DNA of 18,609 nt. It comes from an archaeon. GTDB taxonomy: Archaea > Asgardarchaeota > Thorarchaeia > Thorarchaeales > Thorarchaeaceae. Numbering within the stretch: the first letter of the stretch is position 1; the number at the start of each line of letters is the position of its first letter. The stretch covers positions 1 to 18,609 of the forward strand of contig JAJRZD010000067.1 in the NCBI GenBank assembly GCA_024275415.1. The letters run 5' to 3'. Positions 5,229 through 15,363 of the stretch are shown one piece after another. Both the position numbers and the translations under genes were made by a program. The notes beneath the pieces are model-generated. The model ran no database searches. It saw only the letters and a list, made by a program, of their open reading frames with translations, and was not told where the DNA came from.

Positions 5229-5507
5229 ATGGATTCAGAATCTATCAGAACTGAACTGAGGAGTATTTCTAACTCGGTGCAGTGTGATCGGACATCTCTC
5301 ACAAACGAGTTCGAGAAACTGCTCATAGCGACCACTAATGTGCTACGACTGACCGATGGGCAACAGGGGATGCTTGCAACCCTCCAAGGAAACCCCCAAG
5401 ATTTACACAGATACCTTCTGAATCTCATTCGCCGGTTACAAGAGATGGTAATCAGCTCCAGCGACCGAACGATCAGGGCGCTTGAGACTTTACAAGGCAG
5501 TGTCTAA
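5229..5507 (+). CDS. Hypothetical helical protein (92 aa)
   Basis: ATG directly after the gins TAG; GGTGA Shine-Dalgarno-like motif at 5220-5224; amphipathic helical pattern; no family recognised. Confidence 0.65.
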   Translation: MDSESIRTELRSISNSVQCDRTSLTNEFEKLLIATTNVLRLTDGQQGMLATLQGNPQDLHRYLLNLIRRLQEMVISSSDRTIRALETLQGSV

Positions 5508-5909: not shown

Positions 5910-6452
5910 ATGACCGAAACGGATGACAAAGCCGGACAGCCGGCCATACTCATAGATCCCATTGACATGTCAAAGCTCGACTCTGGATTTAGAAGCGAGA
6001 TTAAGAATATGCCAGATGGTGACGAGATTAATGCTTGTTTTGCATGTTCTACCTGCACAGCAGCGTGTCCTATCGCAAACGTCTGGAAATACAAGCCTCA
6101 TCAACTTATCCGTATGATCCTCCTAGGCATGCGTGAGGAAGTCCTGTCCTCGGAGGAGATATGGCTCTGTTTGACCTGTTTTCAATGTCAGGAACGGTGC
6201 CCCCAGAAAGTGCGTGTGACTGACATCTTCTTTGATTGTAAGAACTTGGCTGCAGAAGAAGGCAAGATTCCTGAGAACATCAAAGGTCTTGCAAGGGAAC
6301 TCGTAGAGAACGGTCAACTCTACCAAGTCACAGCTGATTGGGAACGAGAAGATATGGGTCTTGAGCCAGAAGTACCTGGTCTTTCTACTGATGGGATTAA
6401 GGCGATTCTGAAGGGCACTAGGACTGGAAAGATTACTGGAGGGGAAGAATAG
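5910..6452 (+). CDS. hdrC: Heterodisulfide reductase subunit C
   Basis: CFACSTCTAACP and WLCLTCFQCQERCPQKVRVTD; HQLIRMILLG. Confidence 0.95.
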   Translation: MTETDDKAGQPAILIDPIDMSKLDSGFRSEIKNMPDGDEINACFACSTCTAACPIANVWKYKPHQLIRMILLGMREEVLSSEEIWLCLTCFQCQERCPQKVRVTDIFFDCKNLAAEEGKIPENIKGLARELVENGQLYQVTADWEREDMGLEPEVPGLSTDGIKAILKGTRTGKITGGEE

Positions 6453-7319
6453 TTGCCAACGTACAACCTTTACATGGGATGCAGTGTCCCCGCGAACTAT
6501 CCGAATTACGAGGCTGCCATGATCAAGGTGGCTGAGGCTTTTGGTATGGATTTTGATTATATGGAAGGAGTCGCATGTTGTGGAAGCCCTAACCTACGAG
6601 CAATTGATCACATGGGTTGGCTTACAGTCAATGCAAGAACCCTTGCCATCGGCGATAAGAACGGCCATGATATCGTGACACCCTGTAACGGATGTTTTGC
6701 ATCGCTCAAAGACGCATACCACCTCCTAAAACATGACAAGGAGTATGTTCAGAAGGTCAACAAGATCTTGAAGAAGGAGGGGCTGGAATTCAAGGGGGCT
6801 GCAAAACCTCGTCATTTTGTTGAGGCACTCTATACAGATGTCGGTATAGACGAGATTAAGAAGAAGGTCACAAAGCCCTTGGATGGTGTGGGCATCGCCA
6901 TACATTATGGTTGTCATGTGACGCGTCCTCACGATGTGACCGAGTTCGATCCGGTAATCTTGCAGGAGCTTGTCCAAGCAACAGGAGCGACCGTGATTGA
7001 CTATCCGTTGTGGAAGCAGTGTTGTGGTGCTACAGTGTTGCCTGTGAATGAAGGCATCGCAATCAGACTGGCCCGCGACAAGCTCAAATCAATGAAGGAC
7101 GCAGGGGCTGTGTTTGTTACTGTGGTATGCCCTGCTTGTGGGAACCAGCTCGACCTACAGCAGCTGGGCCTCAAGGAGTCATATGGTGAGGAGTATAACC
7201 TTCCTGTCTTGTTTTATCCTCAAATACTCGGACTAACGATGGGACTGGATGAAGATGCCGTCGGACTATCAATGAATCGAGTTGCAGCCGGTCCAATTCT
7301 GAATCATTTGGCCGAATGA
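6453..7319 (+). CDS. hdrB: Heterodisulfide reductase subunit B
   Basis: Two complete CCG domains: C10...C42C43...C78xxC81 and YGC154H...C190C191...C226xxC229; TTG start directly after the hdrC TAG. Confidence 0.95.
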   Translation: MPTYNLYMGCSVPANYPNYEAAMIKVAEAFGMDFDYMEGVACCGSPNLRAIDHMGWLTVNARTLAIGDKNGHDIVTPCNGCFASLKDAYHLLKHDKEYVQKVNKILKKEGLEFKGAAKPRHFVEALYTDVGIDEIKKKVTKPLDGVGIAIHYGCHVTRPHDVTEFDPVILQELVQATGATVIDYPLWKQCCGATVLPVNEGIAIRLARDKLKSMKDAGAVFVTVVCPACGNQLDLQQLGLKESYGEEYNLPVLFYPQILGLTMGLDEDAVGLSMNRVAAGPILNHLAE

Positions 7320-7331
7320 GGTGAATAGGTA

Positions 7332-8582
7332 GTGTCTGATTCGGTCCTTATCATAGGTGCAGGGGTCGCAGGGCTCACGGCAGCAGTGGAGCTTGCTGAT
7401 TCTGGAGTCAAAGTCACGGTGGTGGAACGATTAGCCACAGTCGGAGGCAATGCTCTAGATCTGTACAAGGCATTTCCTACTGACGATTGTTTCTACTGTT
7501 TCGAAGGGAATCGCTGGAGGCCTGGGATCAGAAAGTGTTTCTATCGTAGTGTGTTGCTTGATCAACCTAACATCGACCTCAAGCTCAGTTCGCAGGTCAA
7601 AGAGATCTCAGGGGCTTCTGGTAATTTCGATGTGAGGATTGAGGTTGGATCACAATACGTCGATTCCAAGAAGTGCATCATGTGTGGTCTCTGCATGGAG
7701 AAGTCGCAGGCATTCTCCTTAATCTCTCCACAATGTCAGCCGCAAGCGGTAGTCTATGACCCAGAAAAAGTAGACGAAGGTGCAAGGGTCGCTGCTGAAG
7801 AATGCCCGACCAAGGCAATAGATCTCGATGCACAGCCATCGGAATCAACTGTGAAGGTATCCGATATCATAGTCGCGACTGGCTATCATGAGATGCAACC
7901 CATCGCAATGGATGAGTATGGCTATGGGCGATATACGAATGTCATCACACAGCTCGAGCTGGCAAAGATCATCGACCCTAATGGTTCATCGAATGGCGTC
8001 CTAGTCAGACCTTCTGACGGAGCTCCAGCAAGTCGAGTTTTAATGGTCCAGTGCGTCGGCAGTAGGGATGAGAACTACTACCCCTATTGTTCAAAGATTT
8101 GCTGTATTTTTGCATTGAAACATGCGAACATCCTCGTGCAGGAACGAGAAAATGTTTCCGTAAGCGTGGTCTACATGGATATCCGAACTTACGACCGACA
8201 TGAGAGATACTATCGTGATGCCAGAGAGGCAGGAGTCGAGTTTGTGAGAGGGCGGATAATGCGGGTAGAGCCCCATAGTGAGAACGAATTGTCCGTCATA
8301 GTGTACGATTCGTTATTGGACAAATACCTCAAGTATACTGTTGACCTATTGGTGTTATCATCTGCGCTCGAACCCCCAAAAGGAGGGAGTGCGATAACCA
8401 GTGCATTGAACCTGAATATGGCAAATGGATTCATTGCCCCTTTTGACCCCGTATCTGAAGAGGAGGTTGTTGTTGGTGAACACATCTATGCTTGTGGGAC
8501 AGCGCTGGGTCCTGCTGAAGTCCCGGAGAGCGTGACTCAGGCCAGGGCCGTGGTATCGAAAATCCTTCAGAGGAGGAAATGA
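7332..8582 (+). CDS. hdrA: Short HdrA-family flavoprotein (QmoA-like size, 416 aa)
   Basis: GAGVAG FAD motif, LYKAFPTDDCFYC, IIVATG, QCVGSRD...YCSKICC, YMDIRTY; GAGGTGA SD at 7318-7324; GTG start. Confidence 0.88.
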   Translation: MSDSVLIIGAGVAGLTAAVELADSGVKVTVVERLATVGGNALDLYKAFPTDDCFYCFEGNRWRPGIRKCFYRSVLLDQPNIDLKLSSQVKEISGASGNFDVRIEVGSQYVDSKKCIMCGLCMEKSQAFSLISPQCQPQAVVYDPEKVDEGARVAAEECPTKAIDLDAQPSESTVKVSDIIVATGYHEMQPIAMDEYGYGRYTNVITQLELAKIIDPNGSSNGVLVRPSDGAPASRVLMVQCVGSRDENYYPYCSKICCIFALKHANILVQERENVSVSVVYMDIRTYDRHERYYRDAREAGVEFVRGRIMRVEPHSENELSVIVYDSLLDKYLKYTVDLLVLSSALEPPKGGSAITSALNLNMANGFIAPFDPVSEEEVVVGEHIYACGTALGPAEVPESVTQARAVVSKILQRRK

Positions 8583-8586
8583 TCAA

Positions 8587-10752
8587 TTGACGGATTCAAA
8601 GAAGTCAGCTGTGATATTATGCACCTGTGGCAAACAACTTGGACTGGACTATGGCCATCTCTCTTCACATCTTGAGAAGCATGAACTAGTTTCCTCAGTG
8701 ATTGTACATGATACATGTTGCCAGCCTGATGGGCTTGACAGCATCGTAGAACTTGTGGACTCAAATGATGGTCGTCTTGTCATCGCTGCTTGCACCAACC
8801 AGAAGATACAGCCACGGATTGATATGTATCTCAGAACAAAGAATGTGGATCCCTCGAAGATACGCTATGTGAACATTCGTGAACAATCCGCATGGGTGCA
8901 TGGTGACAAATCAGAGGCGACTCTGAAATCTCTCGACATGATCAAAGGAGCGGTTGCTGCATCAAGCATCTCTCAGCCATTGCATGTCCAGAAAAAAACG
9001 GTTCCCCCTCATGTCACTGTTGTCGGGGGCGGGATAGCTGGCTTGGAAACTGCACTAAGCTTGAGCAATCTTGGCTACGAAGTTGTATTGGTCGAAATCA
9101 CAGACACCTTGGGTGGGCATGTGCTGAATCTCCCAGTCGTGGCGCCCACCGGGAAATCGGGCGCTGAGGTTATGAAGAGCCGCTTAGATGCGATTGGGAA
9201 GGATAATCGGATACAGGTGATGACCAACACCTATGTGAGATTCTTCGAGGGCGAGATGGGCAATTTCACTGTTCACTATACCTCCGATGGAAAAGATGGG
9301 ACACTTCATACCTCCGCAGTGGTCATGGCCACTGGTTTCAAGGAATTCAAGCCTGTGCAGATGGACGAATACCGCTATGGCAAGAACCCTGATGTACTCA
9401 CTCAATACGAACTGTCCCAGATGATTACCGCTGGCGACATCAAGAAGCCTTCCAGTGCTCAGGATGTCAAAGAGGTCGTCATGGTTCAATGTGTGGGTAG
9501 CAGGTCGGAGGACTATAAACGCGACTGTAGCAAGCTCTGCTGCACCTTTGCCATCGATAACGCGATAGAGCTCAAGGAGCGATTGCCTGATGTCAATGTC
9601 CGAGTCGTATACATGGATATCAGGGTGCCCTTCGAGAATGAGATGATCTACAAGAAGTCGAGGGAACTAGGTGTGGACTTCATCCGCGGTAGGGTCAGCA
9701 TGGTCTGGGAGAACGATGGGCAGACCCGTGTGAAGATATACGACTCACTCATGAATCAGTATTTCGAGGTTCCAGCGGATCTCCTCGTCCTCTCCTCAGC
9801 AGTTCTTCCCTCTGACGGACTTGCCGAACTAGGGGAAACCCTCGGATACATGATTGAGGACGATGGTCATATCAAAGAGTTATACGGGAAGCTCCGGCGG
9901 AATGAAACAAGACGACGCGGAGTAGTAGCTGTAGGAGCAGCTACCCGCCCTCAATTCGTCTTTGAGGCAGTCACAGACGCACAGGCGGCATCTTTAGTAC
10001 TCCACAATGAGCTGCAAGGCGGAGCAATTGAAACATTGGCGCGTGGTGCAGTTCTTGAAGTGGATGACTGTGTCGGCTGTAGTCTCTGTGCACAGCAATG
10101 CCCTCGGGGGGTTCCTCTTATGATCGAGCAGACCGAGTCCGAAGAGATTAATCCTGAACAGAAGCTTATCTTCAAGGCATCGATTGACACCCTGAACTGC
10201 CATGCGTGCGGTGTCTGTCAGAGCCTTTGCCCCTCCGGTGCGACACAGCTCAACTTTATCAGTAACGAACAGCTCTGGGCCGAGATTACAGCAACCTTAG
10301 AGAATGCTGGGCCAGACCGTCCCATCACATTGTGCTTTTACTGCGAGGAGTGTGCAGTATCCACTATTGACATCGCTGGGATTCGAAAGATGGAATATCC
10401 TGCTACAACACGATTGGTTCCTGTCCCCTGTGCCGGACGTGTTAGCATTATAGACATCCTCAAGGCGTTTGAGAATGGTGCTGGTGCAGTCATGATTGCA
10501 GCGTGCGAAACCGACCGCTGTCATGTAGGCGGAACAGGCAACGAGATCGCTCAGGTACAAGTGGATGTTGCAAGGGACATCCTGAACGCGATTGGATGGA
10601 AAGGTGCGCGTGTGGATATGTTCAGGATGTTCAGTGCAGAACCCCAGAGATTCATAGATGCCATAAGCGAGATGACACGTCGTGCATCTGAATTCGGTCC
10701 TACTCCAGTACACAATGGGGAGGCCGGGAAGTGGATGGAGGTCGTCGAATGA
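8587..10752 (+). CDS. hdrA: HdrA-MvhD fusion (QmoB-like architecture, 721 aa)
   Basis: N-terminal CTC...CC...IAAC...VNIREQSAWVH; GGGIAG; QCVGSR...CSKLCC; C-terminal 2x[4Fe-4S] (CVGCSLCAQQCP, CHACGVCQSLCP); MvhD domain from about aa 580 (FYCEEC...YP...VPCAGRV...AACETDRCH); TTG start. Confidence 0.9.
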   Translation: MTDSKKSAVILCTCGKQLGLDYGHLSSHLEKHELVSSVIVHDTCCQPDGLDSIVELVDSNDGRLVIAACTNQKIQPRIDMYLRTKNVDPSKIRYVNIREQSAWVHGDKSEATLKSLDMIKGAVAASSISQPLHVQKKTVPPHVTVVGGGIAGLETALSLSNLGYEVVLVEITDTLGGHVLNLPVVAPTGKSGAEVMKSRLDAIGKDNRIQVMTNTYVRFFEGEMGNFTVHYTSDGKDGTLHTSAVVMATGFKEFKPVQMDEYRYGKNPDVLTQYELSQMITAGDIKKPSSAQDVKEVVMVQCVGSRSEDYKRDCSKLCCTFAIDNAIELKERLPDVNVRVVYMDIRVPFENEMIYKKSRELGVDFIRGRVSMVWENDGQTRVKIYDSLMNQYFEVPADLLVLSSAVLPSDGLAELGETLGYMIEDDGHIKELYGKLRRNETRRRGVVAVGAATRPQFVFEAVTDAQAASLVLHNELQGGAIETLARGAVLEVDDCVGCSLCAQQCPRGVPLMIEQTESEEINPEQKLIFKASIDTLNCHACGVCQSLCPSGATQLNFISNEQLWAEITATLENAGPDRPITLCFYCEECAVSTIDIAGIRKMEYPATTRLVPVPCAGRVSIIDILKAFENGAGAVMIAACETDRCHVGGTGNEIAQVQVDVARDILNAIGWKGARVDMFRMFSAEPQRFIDAISEMTRRASEFGPTPVHNGEAGKWMEVVE

Positions 10753-13010
10753 GTTCGAGTACAGCTGTAAAGGAGATCGCCCCTAAACGAAAGCGTATGA
10801 TGGACATGATTCTCATCCTTGGAGGCCTGAAAGAGGAGGCTGCCATCCCCCTCAGCAGGGTGAACGAGGAGATTGCGAATCTTAAGAAAGAGATCGAACC
10901 GCTTGTTTCGGAGATACTGGCATTCCCTAGTGCATATTATCAACGGTTCTATGAGGTTTCAACAAAGACCAATCTTCCAAGCCAGATTACTGACAAGGGT
11001 ATTCTGACCGAGGCCATCCTGAATATCGAGAAGGCGCTTGAGTTCGGCGAATCTGCTGGACTGTCCGCCCTCAAAGATGCACTGAAAGAAGTGCTCGAAT
11101 CGATGAGTGCGAAACCAGAGGAAAACGAAAAAGTTTCGGTCGATCTGAATCACGTACTGAAGGGGCTTCCAAAGACCACATCGCAGATCTTGGATGCAGT
11201 ATCAGTCCTTGAAGAAACCTCCATGAAGGAACAGGAGCAAGCAAAAGAAGAACTTGACTCTCTTATGGATGGATTCACTGAAATCATCTCAGATGTTGAC
11301 TTAGACGCCGACACCCTTTTAGGAAAACTCCAAAAGATTGGGACAAAGACCCGCTACGGCCCGTTTCTCCGTGTTGCAGCACAACTAAAACGAGGGAAAC
11401 GAGAAGAACGGATAGATGATGAACGTTTCAAGACACTTGTCACAAAGAATCTTGTCACTGAGATGCGACGTGGAATCATTATGTTCATTTTGAACAAGAT
11501 GGGCTCAAAGACCACACCGCAAATAGCTGGATTGTCTGGTCTTTCGCCTCAGGACATCCAGAGTGCCATTGTCAGTATGATAAGCCGTGGTGAAGTAGAG
11601 ATGGTTGGCATTGATGGGAATGCCCCCGTTTTCGCCAAGGTCATCGGGAAGGCGCCAGATAGCACACTTGTCCTAAAACGAGCCCTCCAACAGCTTCGTA
11701 GTGTACTGAAGACTATGGACGATAAGACAAGACACTTGGTCGAAAACCCACTGAATGACCTTGAAACTGCCTATAGTCGGTTGCAGATGCTTGGTGAATA
11801 TGATGAGCCGCTTATCGCAGAGCCAATGAAGACATTACAGGATATTGGGACGAAAGTGGCTGAGGCTGCTATCAAGTCCCACGCTGGTGATGATTCGGAT
11901 GAGCTACGTCTCTTGGTGTCTGCAGGTCTTGAGGCATTCGCACGATTCAGGCTGAAGATAGCATTGGAGAAAGGTCCGCATCTAGTGTCTGGAGTCAATG
12001 TATATGGTGAGAAACTCGACGAGTCCACCTACCAGCAGATTATGGATTCCTATCTGAACAACGAGCTTGAGCGCGGAACTATCCTTATCCTGATTCGAGA
12101 GCTTGGTGCGATGACTACAAAGGACTTGGCGGAGCGAACCGATATCCCACCGGATCGGATATTGCAACACCTACTCCGGATGAAGCGGGACGAACTCCTG
12201 ACAATTGCTGGCGAATCTCACGGATACATCCTGTATGATGTCCCTCGAACGTTGACCGAGGCTGAGGTCGCCATTCAAACTATTAGCTCGCTCGCTCTTC
12301 AGACAGCCGAAGCCACAAAGGATTTGGCCGATACGGTATCTGATCTTCAACCAAGTTCAATTGGGAAGTTGACCAGCGCCTTAGATACCCTTTCCAAGGC
12401 ACGCGACAAGATGGGGAAGATAGAGATTGGTGGCACAGTGATTGCAAAGGATCTCATTGCCAATGTCGAGGACAAGATCAAGTCTGCAGTAGCGATGGGA
12501 TATCGCACACGGGCAAGGATTCCCAGTACTCGCCCCAAGGTCACCATAGAGGATCTCATGGACGTTGACGTTCCCAGTGTGATTGATGAGTACAAGGGCA
12601 TGATGGGCTATGCTCCATTGCTCGGTTTTGGTACTATCGAATGGGTACAGTCCAAGTGTCTTGGGTGCAAGTCCTGCGAGATTGCCTGCCCTGAGAATGC
12701 AATCGAACTTAAACCATCCATCGATGTCCCTCAGTTCTTTGAGTTCTCTGACGAGACTCTTGATTCATTGCCTGTGAACAAATCCATCTTCTACAGAACC
12801 GTCAGGAACCTTGCGACTGTTAAACCATCCACCAAAATTGCATTAGATGAAGATAAGCCTGGTTTCGGATCAGTTGAAGTCGACTTGTGGCTATGCGTGG
12901 GCTGTCGTACTTGTGTGCGACGTTGTCCTGGGACTGATGACGGCGCTCTTGAACTCATCCTCAAGTGGAATCTCCCAGAGGTCATTCGCCAGATTACGGC
13001 ACAGAATTAG
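10749..13010 (+). CDS. Uncharacterised 753-aa protein: helical regions, two winged-HTH modules and a C-terminal 2x[4Fe-4S] ferredoxin
   Basis: ATGA overlap with the upstream stop and GGAGGT SD; wHTH-like segments GIIMFILNKMGSKTTPQIA...GEVEMVG and GTILILIRELGAMTTKDLA...DELLTIAG; CLGCKSCEIACP and CVGCRTCVRRCP. Confidence 0.85.
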   Translation: MSSSTAVKEIAPKRKRMMDMILILGGLKEEAAIPLSRVNEEIANLKKEIEPLVSEILAFPSAYYQRFYEVSTKTNLPSQITDKGILTEAILNIEKALEFGESAGLSALKDALKEVLESMSAKPEENEKVSVDLNHVLKGLPKTTSQILDAVSVLEETSMKEQEQAKEELDSLMDGFTEIISDVDLDADTLLGKLQKIGTKTRYGPFLRVAAQLKRGKREERIDDERFKTLVTKNLVTEMRRGIIMFILNKMGSKTTPQIAGLSGLSPQDIQSAIVSMISRGEVEMVGIDGNAPVFAKVIGKAPDSTLVLKRALQQLRSVLKTMDDKTRHLVENPLNDLETAYSRLQMLGEYDEPLIAEPMKTLQDIGTKVAEAAIKSHAGDDSDELRLLVSAGLEAFARFRLKIALEKGPHLVSGVNVYGEKLDESTYQQIMDSYLNNELERGTILILIRELGAMTTKDLAERTDIPPDRILQHLLRMKRDELLTIAGESHGYILYDVPRTLTEAEVAIQTISSLALQTAEATKDLADTVSDLQPSSIGKLTSALDTLSKARDKMGKIEIGGTVIAKDLIANVEDKIKSAVAMGYRTRARIPSTRPKVTIEDLMDVDVPSVIDEYKGMMGYAPLLGFGTIEWVQSKCLGCKSCEIACPENAIELKPSIDVPQFFEFSDETLDSLPVNKSIFYRTVRNLATVKPSTKIALDEDKPGFGSVEVDLWLCVGCRTCVRRCPGTDDGALELILKWNLPEVIRQITAQN

Positions 13011-13068: not shown

Positions 13069-13115
13069 TCTGTAACCTAATGACATTCATTGAGATTTTA
13101 GGCTGGTGAATGTTG

Positions 13116-14315
13116 ATGGTCGATTTCGCATACACGGATGAACAACTTGCTTTGCAGAAGAAGGCACGGGTCTTCACCCATGAGTACATACTGCCCTATG
13201 CCTCATACTATGACAAGACAGGCGAGTTCCCTCTGCCTATCATAAGAAAGGCGTGGGACGCAGGTCTTATGAACTTGGCAATACCCAAAGAATACGGCGG
13301 GCCCGAGCTGGGGCTAGTCGAGGCATGTATCGTGGTGGAAGAGTTTGCTTCAGGATGTGCAGGAATGACCACTAGCATCTTTGCCAACCAGCTTGGCCCA
13401 GAGCCGATTATGATAGCAGGGTCTCCTGAACAGAAGGAAAAGTACCTTCGACCACTGACCGAGGCGCCAAAGCTCGTTTCTTTCGCATGTTCGGAGCCTG
13501 GGATGGGTAGTGATGTAGCAGGAATCAAGACTGCTGTGGAAAAAGATGGTGACGAATATGTCATCAATGGCTCCAAGTTCTGGATCACGAACGCTCCCTA
13601 TGCAGACTACTTTACAGTCTTTGCAAGCCTTGACCCCAGCAAGAGGCACAAGGCACTCTGTGCCTTTATTGTCGATGCTGACGCACCAGGAGTCAAGATT
13701 GGGCGTCCTGTTGAGAAAATGGGACATCGTGCATCCTCGACAGCATCAATAATGTTCAGGGATGCCCGAGTACCCGCTGAGAACCTTCTTGGGTCTGAGG
13801 GCGAAGGGTTCAAGATCGCAATGAAGACCTTTGCGTTGACACGCCCTGCTATTGCAGCATTCGCAACTGGGCTTGCACGCTCCGCCATGGAATATGCCCG
13901 AGAATATACCATGAAGCGGGATGCATTCGGCAGCAAGCTCAGAGAGTTCCAGGCAATCCAGTTCAAGCTTGCCGAGATGCTCATGAAGGTCGAAACCTCT
14001 CGTCTGCTCTATCTGAGGGCTGCATGGGCTGCTGATACCACTCCTGATGCGACCATTCCTGCAAGCATCGCCAAGGCTTTTGCCACTGATGCTGCGATGT
14101 GGTGTGCAAGTGAGGCACTCCAGATTCATGGCGGATATGGGTACATCGACCAATATCCTCTTGAGAAGATATTCAGGGATGCCAAACTCTATCAGATCTA
14201 TGAGGGCACAAGTGAGATACAACGGTTGATTCTTGGACGTTATGTGCTTGATGGGTACCAACCCGCCCGAGAAACACCTCCAAGATGGGCAGGGCAGAAG
14301 GCCCCTGACTTCTAG
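13116..14315 (+). CDS. acd: Acyl-CoA dehydrogenase, MCAD-like
   Basis: SEPGMGSDVAGIKT, NGSKFWITNA, KMGHRAS, FQAIQFKLAEM, QIHGGYGY, QIYEGTSEIQR (catalytic Glu in YEG). Start set by GGTGA at 13105-13109; alternative ATG 13110. Confidence 0.95.
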   Translation: MVDFAYTDEQLALQKKARVFTHEYILPYASYYDKTGEFPLPIIRKAWDAGLMNLAIPKEYGGPELGLVEACIVVEEFASGCAGMTTSIFANQLGPEPIMIAGSPEQKEKYLRPLTEAPKLVSFACSEPGMGSDVAGIKTAVEKDGDEYVINGSKFWITNAPYADYFTVFASLDPSKRHKALCAFIVDADAPGVKIGRPVEKMGHRASSTASIMFRDARVPAENLLGSEGEGFKIAMKTFALTRPAIAAFATGLARSAMEYAREYTMKRDAFGSKLREFQAIQFKLAEMLMKVETSRLLYLRAAWAADTTPDATIPASIAKAFATDAAMWCASEALQIHGGYGYIDQYPLEKIFRDAKLYQIYEGTSEIQRLILGRYVLDGYQPARETPPRWAGQKAPDF

Positions 14316-14563: not shown

Positions 14564-14761
14564 TCATACTTGTGTTTGAAGAACACGCATCTTCAGAGAA
14601 AGGGATGTCCTTACCACGCAGACCTTTGAATCATTGTTGTGCACCAAGACGTTTGGCTGCATCTTGTCGCTCTTGGCTGCTTTCATTCAACATGATTACC
14701 GTGACCTCATCCCAATGCCCCCTACAAGCACATCCCTTTCTCAAACCAATACCGAGTATGA
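14564..14761. repeat. Nested inverted-repeat element (candidate structured RNA or MITE-like relic)
   Basis: Perfect 13-bp IR GAGAAAGGGATGT (14596-14608) / ACATCCCTTTCTC (14730-14742), enclosing 10-bp and 9-bp bulged helices and enclosed by a 7-bp IR (14564-14570 / 14755-14761). Confidence 0.55.
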
Positions 14762-14826
14762 CTCCATGCCTTCAATATGTGCTATGGTTTTCCTCCATTA
14801 TCATGCTCAAATATACGTATGATATA

Positions 14827-15363
14827 TCACGAGATGTTACTGTCTACAGACCAATACTGTCCGTTCAATGGTATGTAGACGAATAGGTCTACTTTTGAGG
14901 TGTCGAACCTTCCTTTCTCGTCAAGCACGGCCTCATCAATATGGACTGCTAGCACCTCAGCGACAAAGAGGTCGTGTACACCGACATTGATGACATGGCT
15001 CGTCTTGCATTCGATATTGATTGGGCATTCGTCAATCATTGGAGCATCGACTTTCGATGCCTGAACCGCGGTGAGTTTCATCTCACTGAATTTGTCGTAA
15101 TCCCGTCCTGACTTCGACCCACAGAACTTCATGGCATCGAAGAGGTTCTTTCCAGGGACATTAAGCACAAACTCACCTGCGTCCTTGACTAGGCCGTGAC
15201 TGAACCTGTTAGGTCTGATTCCTATAGCGACACTCGGAGGTTCACTGCACACATTTGCCACCCATGAAAGAGTGATTATGTTTGGACGTTCCTTGCCTTT
15301 CACACTCAGTAATATTACCGGACACGGCACTATGGCTGTCGTACCTTTCATTTGTTTCTTCAT
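14827..15363 (-). CDS. Flavin reductase-like / flavoredoxin family FMN-binding protein
   Basis: PCPVILLS, NIITLSWV, SEPPSVAIGIRPNRFSH, EFVLNVP, FCGSKSGRDYDKF, PMIDECPINIECK, GVHDLFVAEV; start M at 15363. Confidence 0.9.
   Translation of the reverse strand: MKKQMKGTTAIVPCPVILLSVKGKERPNIITLSWVANVCSEPPSVAIGIRPNRFSHGLVKDAGEFVLNVPGKNLFDAMKFCGSKSGRDYDKFSEMKLTAVQASKVDAPMIDECPINIECKTSHVINVGVHDLFVAEVLAVHIDEAVLDEKGRFDTSKVDLFVYIPLNGQYWSVDSNIS

Follow-up and report, generated by a model that had tools for sequence, protein, structure and literature searches.

In the class II benzoyl-CoA reductase of Geobacter metallireducens, solved by cryo-EM as a complex of formula Bam[(BC)2DEFGHI]2, the MvhD-homologous adaptor BamF is more than 100 residues longer than other MvhDs, is described with two Rossmann-fold domains, and carries a winged helix-turn-helix that interfaces with the iron-sulfur (Fe-S) subunit BamI (bioRxiv 10.64898/2026.04.10.717634). 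Electrons pass from the BamI clusters into BamE, a fused-HdrA subunit, at its C-terminal ferredoxin domain and from there to the [2Fe-2S] cluster of BamF, and an electron transfer flavoprotein (ETF), assay-coupled to acyl-CoA dehydrogenase (ACAD), is the high-potential acceptor at the HdrBC-like BamD (bioRxiv 10.64898/2026.04.10.717634). Here, we analyzed an 18,609-nucleotide (nt) stretch of DNA, referred to as the window, in which an hdr operon ends in a gene (10749..13010, forward strand, stop codon included) for a 753-amino-acid (aa) protein with two winged-helix (wH) modules and a C-terminal 2x[4Fe-4S] ferredoxin. The source of the window is a member of the Thorarchaeota, an Asgard lineage, as indicated by its PCNA, PriS, GINS, eL15, and RNase P p30 genes and by the named Thorarchaeota that are the closest database relatives of the protein. 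We propose that this protein is probably a dedicated Fe-S adaptor or docking subunit of the HdrA(short)-HdrA::MvhD-HdrBC flavin-based electron-bifurcating complex of Thorarchaeota and Helarchaeota.

The operon runs in the order hdrC, hdrB, short hdrA, long hdrA fused to mvhD (hdrA::mvhD), and the gene under study, with an ACAD gene starting 99 nt after it (Table 1). The ATG at 10749 overlaps the TGA of hdrA::mvhD (ATGA) and is preceded by GGAGG 8 nt on its 5' side; the overlap points to translational coupling of the two genes. Among 300 further genomes of the phylum that were searched, 76 belong to the window's family, and 75 of these have a full-length match, each in one copy; two other families have a distant form of ~750 aa, and the remaining Asgard families have long MvhDs only. 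Databases hold an identical 753-aa protein and more than 120 orthologues at 57-74% identity. The association with hdr genes in other genomes, which the first-pass annotation had made a condition of its reading, was borne out: hdrA::mvhD lies directly upstream in every Thorarchaeota-family locus reaching that far and in three Helarchaeota-type loci. The ACAD gene lies directly downstream in 13 of the 14 Thorarchaeota-family loci that extend past the gene (L002, L031, L032, L050, L038-L043, and L045-L048); in the remaining case, L044, the sequence stops 256 nt after the stop codon. In 11 sampled relatives, as well as in L031 and L032, both neighbors are in place wherever the locus reaches. Helarchaeota-type loci, whose homologues share 21-24% identity, are ordered hdrA(short)-hdrA::mvhD-X-hdrC-hdrB, X being the homologue.

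As a separate observation, the two HdrA paralogues of the window (7332-10752) have complementary domains, the 416-aa form consisting of the FAD core only and the 721-aa form of N- and C-terminal domains plus MvhD. Together, the pair resembles the BamE-like double HdrA found fused elsewhere, here divided over two genes.

The ferredoxin fusion noticed at first pass holds. The domain scores 40.1 bits against a cut-off of 27 for Fer4_7 and 33.5 against 21.1 for Fer4, and its ligand cysteines (C637, C640, C643, and C647; C716, C719, C722, and C726) are invariant, Helarchaeota copies included. It shares two CxxCxxCxxxCP motifs, the Fer4_7 match above cut-off, and the fold (Z ~9 to PsaC, FwdF, and PorD) with the bacterial-type ferredoxin domains of enzyme complexes (PsaC, PorD, NuoI, and the polyferredoxin FwdF). 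Unlike these, the 753-aa protein has a conserved insert of ~67 residues, which forms much of the predicted docking surface described below, and ~625 non-ferredoxin residues precede the domain. When the complete sequence was searched against the PDB, only generic ferredoxin matches and chance-level ones (a PCI-domain protein, E 0.24) came back, and these were set aside.

A co-fold with the MvhD-bearing fragment, as the first-pass annotation had proposed, gave a confidently predicted complex. The fragments were aa 480-721 of HdrA::MvhD (C-terminal ferredoxin and MvhD domains) and aa 381-753 of the protein, aligned separately. All three runs scored 0.87, whereas none of three controls exceeded 0.01; of 80 solved complexes 58 attain the pass mark, as do 2 of 110 mismatched pairs, counts that hold only roughly for custom alignments such as these. 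At least 79% of the contacts were common to the runs, and partner predicted local distance difference test (pLDDT) values were at least 59. The predicted interface sets aa 638-731 against HdrA aa 496-560 (the ferredoxin motifs) and 620-717 (MvhD), and on the side of the 753-aa protein it takes in the two cluster motifs together with the insert FYRTVRNLAT.KP…PGFG, which is conserved. Confident contacts run through the ferredoxin domain and none through the second winged helix. The model supports docking of the ferredoxin domain where the C-terminal ferredoxin of HdrA and MvhD make a joint surface. In methanogen complexes, the hydrogenase Fe-S subunit MvhG meets MvhD, and the docking site proposed here matches that arrangement.

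The duplication of winged helices reported at first pass was confirmed and narrowed. Segments of 41 residues beginning at aa 220 (nt 11406) and aa 421 (nt 12009), 201 aa apart, align without gaps (aa 220-260 and 421-461) with 11 of 41 identities and a BLOSUM62 score of 71, the best diagonal of the protein, against 29.7±4.8 with a maximum of 48 in 200 shuffles. Profile-profile comparison with 26 orthologues limits the repeat to ~71 residues (aa 220-290 and 421-491; 92% probability, E 6e-7), so that its unit is the winged helix with the long first helix; the helical bundles behind the two modules, compared with the same 26 orthologues as candidate parts of the repeat, have no detectable similarity. 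Both modules (wH1 and wH2) fold as winged helices of topology H-H-H-beta-beta in AlphaFold2. The full-length run gives wH1 helices at 224-251, 256-263, and 267-279 and strands at 283-289 and 292-297; the run with aa 381-753 gives wH2 helices at 45-72, 77-84, and 88-100 and strands at 105-110 and 113-117 (numbering of that model), with pLDDT values of ~85-90 for the fold call. Structure searches per domain matched the modules to winged helices of MarR, AntR, ArsR, Z-alpha, and RPC62 with Z 8-9. All Pfam helix-turn-helix matches remain under their gathering scores (HTH_24, 19.7 versus 21.9; TrmB, 16.8 versus 25.6; Rrf2, 17.9 versus 30), those to HTH_24, Rrf2, and TrmB falling at wH2. Among Thorarchaeota orthologues, identity decreases from wH2 (76-90%) to wH1 (48-71%) and the N-terminal helical domain (42-60%).

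The remaining parts of the protein are mostly helical. The N-terminal domain starts with the invariant motif APKRxRMxDM (P12, K13, R14, R16, M17, and M20 in 26 orthologues), and aa 1-210 carry a net charge of about -15. Two invariant basic stretches flank the modules: aa 190-222 (net +6.3 and isoelectric point [pI] 11.2 across 26 orthologues; invariant Q195, K196, G198, T201, R202, Y203, G204, R208, Q212, K214, R215, and R221) and aa 581-600 (net +5 and pI 11.9; invariant Y585, T587, R588, P592, S593, T594, R595, and V598). The whole protein has a pI of 5.0. The three-helix bundle at aa 501-580 matches generic helical bundles only, and inter-domain confidence of the AlphaFold2 models is low (predicted template modeling score [pTM], 0.38-0.40). 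No NCBIfam model covers the non-ferredoxin part, matches in a protein-language-model atlas are limited to the protein's own Thorarchaeota cluster, and a description of the protein was looked for in the literature on Asgard Hdr and not found.

Homology links the modules to the tails of long MvhDs. An exhaustive phmmer search with aa 1-625 retrieved, beyond the Thorarchaeota orthologues, ~740-aa Helarchaeota proteins of the same architecture and many proteins of 110-270 aa that match aa ~380-500 only (E 1e-4 to 1e-8). The longer ones among the latter are MvhD (FlpD) with a C-terminal tail, and the shorter ones (~110 aa) are free copies of the module. The first-pass link of RLK...NVYGE to an extension on long MvhDs thereby proved accurate, the matched proteins having the same FRLR..GK..GNVYGEK motif. 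In general, tails and free copies have in common FR(L/I)R..(L/I).GK…GNVYGEK and, after it, a winged helix; a conserved His in helix 3 of the latter is retained across phyla in the module family. Module 2 carries this signature, FR(L/I)(R/K)x(L/I)xxK ... (G)NVYGEK, as ARFRLKIALEKGPHLVSGVNVYGEKLD; module 1 has no NVYGE and a basic helix in its place. Comparison of wH1 with the module profile A2 gave 96.5% in hhalign (E 7e-10), and a genome search with A2, a profile that itself includes module 2, located nt 11931-12245 (E 5e-34) and nt 11403-11639 (E 4e-9). Homology of module 2 with the long-MvhD tail is well grounded in these sequence comparisons, and that of module 1 is weaker (hhalign, 96.5-99.7% for the module comparisons).

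Long MvhDs of 250-280 aa also turned up by the hundreds in profile searches, with "hydrogenase iron-sulfur subunit" as their sole annotation. They form an uncurated family in which MvhD/FlpD (PF02662) is followed by a C-terminal tail of ~110 aa made of helix, NVYGEK, and winged helix. The 753-aa protein shares with them the tail homology, the motif, the company of HdrA, MvhD, and HdrB/C, and the position of the module after an MvhD domain. It differs in that the module is unfused from MvhD and sits in the next gene, duplicated, between helical domains, and joined to a 2x[4Fe-4S] ferredoxin. The separation from MvhD noted at first pass is therefore real: the protein has no FlpD match, the module begins 380 residues into it, and the MvhD domain forms the C-terminus of the upstream product (nt 10330-10698, aa 582-704 of 721).

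Mapping of the module to its genomic contexts, another step suggested by the first-pass annotation, placed it consistently among enzyme genes. A2 was too diverse for a multi-genome scan, and the narrower profile A3, which required NVYG[EKD]K, found 29 loci that under-sample the family. In a set of 27 module loci (L004-L030) from Bathyarchaeia, Thermoplasmata, Promethearchaeota, Hod- and Hermodarchaeota, and one Acidobacteriota genome, an HdrA-type gene adjoins the module gene in 27 of 27, and wherever the module gene is complete in the sequence read, it encodes a long MvhD. The longer loci add a short MvhD and HdrC/HdrB, and the neighboring HdrA is usually a double HdrA of ~1000 aa. Several loci are ordered HdrA(short)-HdrA(long)-MvhD+tail, collinear with HdrA(short)-HdrA(long)::MvhD and the 753-aa protein in Thorarchaeota. 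In the genome of an uncultured archaeon, a free 128-aa module is flanked by a short mvhD on one side and by mvhG/mvhA, genes of a [NiFe]-hydrogenase, on the other (L033:14336-14722; hhalign, 99.7% to the module profile). Since the module is found in MvhD/HdrA enzyme loci of many phyla, it is best regarded as a component of these enzyme clusters.

Some of these regions are large arrays of HdrA(short), HdrA(long), long MvhD, double HdrA of ~1000 aa (BamE-like), short MvhD, and HdrC/B (e.g., L006:3540-12194 and L023:2135-14116), and the pair of long MvhD and double HdrA is repeated in some arrays of Bathyarchaeia, Thermoplasmata, and other Asgard genomes. The genome from which the window derives has two more mvhD genes, each with a small wH open reading frame (ORF) ~70 nt downstream (C21:75041-75654 and C97:6314-6927), with E values of 4e-6 and 9e-6 to the module core.

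Comparison with the Bam complex brings out both likenesses and differences. An HdrA-type bifurcating core, a winged helix, and an Fe-S relay are common to the two systems, and the co-fold suggests the same electron path for the 753-aa protein. Likewise, ETF and acyl-CoA dehydrogenase are linked to the Bam complex, and the hdr operon adjoins an ACAD gene. By the preprint's description of BamF alone, the protein has the look of a single chain that unites a winged helix of the BamF type with a relay of the BamI type. The first-pass remark that no characterized equivalent exists thus needs qualifying, in that BamF, as described, is a long MvhD whose winged helix docks BamI. In Thorarchaeota, by contrast, winged helix and Fe-S relay share one polypeptide apart from MvhD; BamB/C have no counterpart, and a BamGH-like module is present only in the variants described next. 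In the benzoyl-CoA reductase, the docking site of ETF is the HdrBC-like BamD instead of the adaptor. Searching the PDB with a long MvhD gave short MvhDs only, of at most 141 aa, and neither a Geobacter entry nor one named BamF appeared among the best 120 matches of the long-MvhD database searches.

Natural variants bear on function. In six Thorarchaeota genomes, the orthologue is ~975 aa long and consists of the N-terminal domain, a GltD/NfnB-like module, wH2, the helical bundle, and the ferredoxin, wH1 being lost; in one further genome, the insertion follows aa ~211, wH1 is kept, and the protein has at least 1109 aa. The insert comprises Fer4_20 and Pyr_redox_2 (FAD/NAD(P)H) domains. The N-terminal domain is retained in these proteins, and the operon around them is otherwise unchanged. 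A built-in NAD(P)H-dependent Fe-S flavoprotein is sensible in an arm of the enzyme through which electrons enter or leave and hard to square with a transcription factor.

We thus envisage that the ferredoxin domain, including the insert helix FYRTVRNLAT.KP, would sit on the C-terminal ferredoxin and MvhD surface of the long HdrA and relay single electrons into or out of its Fe-S/[2Fe-2S]/FAD chain. The N-terminal helical domain and the two winged helices, homologous to the wH tail of long MvhDs, probably serve as protein scaffolding and docking elements that most likely hold a redox partner at the complex. The co-transcribed ACAD would be the leading candidate for this partner in most Thorarchaeota, and in some lineages the GltD-type NAD(P)H:FAD/Fe-S module may be the partner built into the protein. 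Both the direction of electron flow and the identity of the partner are inferred here. The nearest NCBIfam models of the ACAD are AcrC (acryloyl-CoA reductase), cyclohexane-1-carbonyl-CoA dehydrogenase, and butyryl-type enzymes, all below cut-offs and far below them for the first two.

This proposal matters because Asgard archaea have many Hdr-like modules with unknown donors and acceptors, and models of syntrophy, hence of eukaryogenesis, depend on how reducing equivalents are disposed of. The 753-aa protein is a near-universal, uncharacterized part of one Thorarchaeota Hdr module and probably marks the point at which a partner plugs in. If confirmed, it would represent a new class of adaptor subunit for HdrA-type bifurcating enzymes and would suggest that oxidation or reduction of acyl-CoA might be linked to flavin-based electron bifurcation independently of ETF. 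The "DNA-binding" wH annotations (ArsR, MarR, and IscR) on this protein and on hundreds of long MvhDs would then be misleading.

Several observations weigh against an adaptor role or against parts of it. In the co-fold, wH2 makes no confident contact, and solved HdrA-MvhD complexes with Fe-S donor subunits exist, so that the passing score may partly reflect likeness to them. The Helarchaeota-type operons that were read have no acyl-CoA dehydrogenase, which makes the ACAD a lineage-specific partner at best, and EtfAB, encoded outside the hdr operon (contig C7:31014-32496), could serve the ACAD instead. The other adverse points concern nucleic acid: the nearest fold relatives of the winged helices are DNA-binding MarR, ArsR, and PadR domains together with Z-alpha; the weak Pfam matches, in this protein and across the family (HTH_24, Rrf2, TrmB, MarR, and ArsR), are all to DNA-binding helix-turn-helix families; the two invariant basic stretches could bind nucleic acid; and R470, R477, and K479 in wH2 helix 3 are basic and invariant.

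The points on nucleic acid are the case for the function put forward at first pass, namely, a redox-sensing transcription factor or a DNA/RNA-tethered Hdr subunit in which the redox state of the ferredoxin clusters, as imposed by the Hdr chain, would alter nucleic acid binding by the winged helices. We consider this unlikely. The gene is single-copy, universally co-operonic with enzyme genes, and apparently translationally coupled to one of them; some lineages have an NAD(P)H/FAD oxidoreductase inserted in the protein; and in many phyla the module family is fused to MvhD or stands between mvhD and mvhG. The basic surface asked for at first pass is found only in part. Basic residues are present in wH2 helix 3 and in the flanking stretches, but the domains themselves are net acidic (wH1, -1.9; wH2, -3.2), their wing tips are acidic (G-L-(D/E)-G-D-A-P in wH1 and A-G-E489-S-H-G-Y, with G-E489 invariant, in wH2), and helix 3 of wH1 has a single basic residue. 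The corresponding "recognition" helix of wH2 is almost invariant (R470, H474, R477, K479, D481, and E482), and a fixed protein partner therefore fits better than diverging operators. Cluster ligands of the Rrf2/IscR type are absent: the protein's eight cysteines are all ferredoxin ligands within aa 637-726, 26 orthologues have none conserved elsewhere, and no Cys or other sensor ligand lies near the winged helices. A repeat search of the 400 nt upstream of hdrC, a weak test, found only short imperfect repeats and no convincing operator-like palindrome. The co-fold, with its contact through the ferredoxin, likewise disfavors a regulator; the winged helices probably bind protein rather than nucleic acid. 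That they and the basic stretches together bind nucleic acid, so that an Hdr-bound Fe-S subunit couples the redox state of a bifurcating enzyme to DNA or RNA in Asgard archaea, seems to us very improbable; if true, it would be an enzyme-tethered redox switch, for which no characterized equivalent exists.

With the ArsR, MarR, and Rrf2 regulators, the protein shares a fold and weak profile similarity, but it is sub-threshold in Pfam, acidic, and devoid of Rrf2-type Cys ligands, and it is embedded in an enzyme operon rather than being a small, dimeric, stand-alone protein. The tandem extended winged helices of the RPC62/RPC39-TFE type (Pol III and archaeal TFE-beta) are a second comparison. Foldseek with the full-length model (pTM, 0.38) listed RPC62 at the top along with sigma-factor rows (E ≥ 2.5e-3, the RPC62 rows reaching 2.5e-3), one Helarchaeota homologue has a weak HTH_9 match, and the combination of winged helix and Fe-S is superficially alike. 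Archaeal TFE-beta also carries an Fe-S domain. However, the template modeling score is ~0.1, the Fe-S part here is a classical di-cluster ferredoxin, and the context is strictly metabolic. We judged the Foldseek rows to be generic multi-wH/helical resemblance and rejected them; the RPC62 similarity reflects the generic extended-wH fold.

An assembly or maturation factor, i.e., a scaffold that delivers Fe-S clusters or chaperones the folding of HdrA::MvhD and then leaves the complex, would suit the large, flexible helical architecture with its low inter-domain confidence, the encoding within the operon, and the predicted contact with cofactor domains. It is nonetheless improbable, given that electron relays, unlike cluster carriers, typically have a canonical 2x[4Fe-4S] ferredoxin fold with all ligands in place, that the GltD-type insertion supplies an electron donor and is sensible only in a working electron path, and that translational coupling, as deduced from the ATGA overlap, fits a 1:1 subunit. 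Highly unlikely, finally, are winged helices that sense a ligand (e.g., acyl-CoA, CoA, or a thiol cofactor) and gate electron flow through the ferredoxin allosterically with neither DNA nor a separate protein partner: small ligands, aromatic or acyl, are often bound by folds of the MarR and PadR type, the conserved neighbor is an acyl-CoA dehydrogenase, and wH2 is free of contacts in the co-fold, but no ligand pocket or dimer interface typical of MarR/PadR was identified, and Mvh hydrogenase and double-HdrA clusters contain this module in the absence of acyl-CoA enzymes.

Table 1. Coordinates of the hdr operon, of the parts of the 753-aa protein, and of orthologues with an insertion (nt positions in the window unless a locus is given)
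Feature	Position	Strand	Basis or remark
hdrC	5910-6452	+	Pfam and NCBIfam; same order in loci L031, L032, L050
hdrB	6453-7319	+	Pfam and NCBIfam; same order in loci L031, L032, L050
Short hdrA	7332-8582	+	Pfam and NCBIfam; same order in loci L031, L032, L050
Long HdrA fused to MvhD, 721 aa	8587..10752	+	FlpD 104.7 bits; HdrA2 model 448 bits
N-terminal helical domain, aa 1-189	10749..11315	+	AlphaFold2 helices H12-201; acidic
Basic helix before wH1, aa 190-222, LQKLGTKTRYG..LR..AQ.KRGKRE	11316..11414	+	Invariant
Winged-helix module 1 (wH1), aa 223-300	11415..11648	+	AlphaFold2, hhalign, A2 profile search
Three-helix linker after wH1, aa 301-390	11649..11918	+	AlphaFold2 helices 304-322, 329-348, 354-377
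Helix and NVYGEK motif before wH2, aa 391-423, AGLEAFARFRLKI.LEKGP.LVSG.NVYGEKLD	11919..12017	+	Nearly invariant in 26 orthologues
Winged-helix module 2 (wH2), aa 424-500	12018..12248	+	AlphaFold2; highest conservation within the protein
Three-helix bundle after wH2, aa 501-580	12249..12488	+	AlphaFold2 helices 124-151, 155-177, 187-210 (381-753 model)
Invariant basic stretch YRTRARIPSTRPKV, aa 581-600	12489..12548	+	Predicted disordered, pLDDT <55
Pre-ferredoxin segment and 2x[4Fe-4S] ferredoxin domain, aa 601-753	12549..13007	+	Fer4_7 above cut-off
Cluster motif 1, C637-P648	12657-12692	+	CxxCxxCxxxCP
Insert of ~67 aa between cluster motifs, aa 649-715	12693-12893	+	Conserved; helix FYRTVRNLAT.KP
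Cluster motif 2, C716-P727	12894-12929	+	CxxCxxCxxxCP
Acyl-CoA dehydrogenase (ACAD) gene, directly 3' of the gene under study	13110..14315	+	Three ACAD Pfam domains
GltD-insertion orthologues	L050:4245-7187 (G164); L002:571-3489 (P0123); L049:3-3329 (G182)		

Elsewhere in the window, three ORFs of 92-124 aa have no Pfam match, two of them (5229-5507 and 14572-14886) having no NCBIfam match either. The ORF at 2017-2391 precedes pcna, that at 5229-5507 lies between gins and hdrC, and that at 14572-14886 occupies the convergent gap past the dehydrogenase gene.

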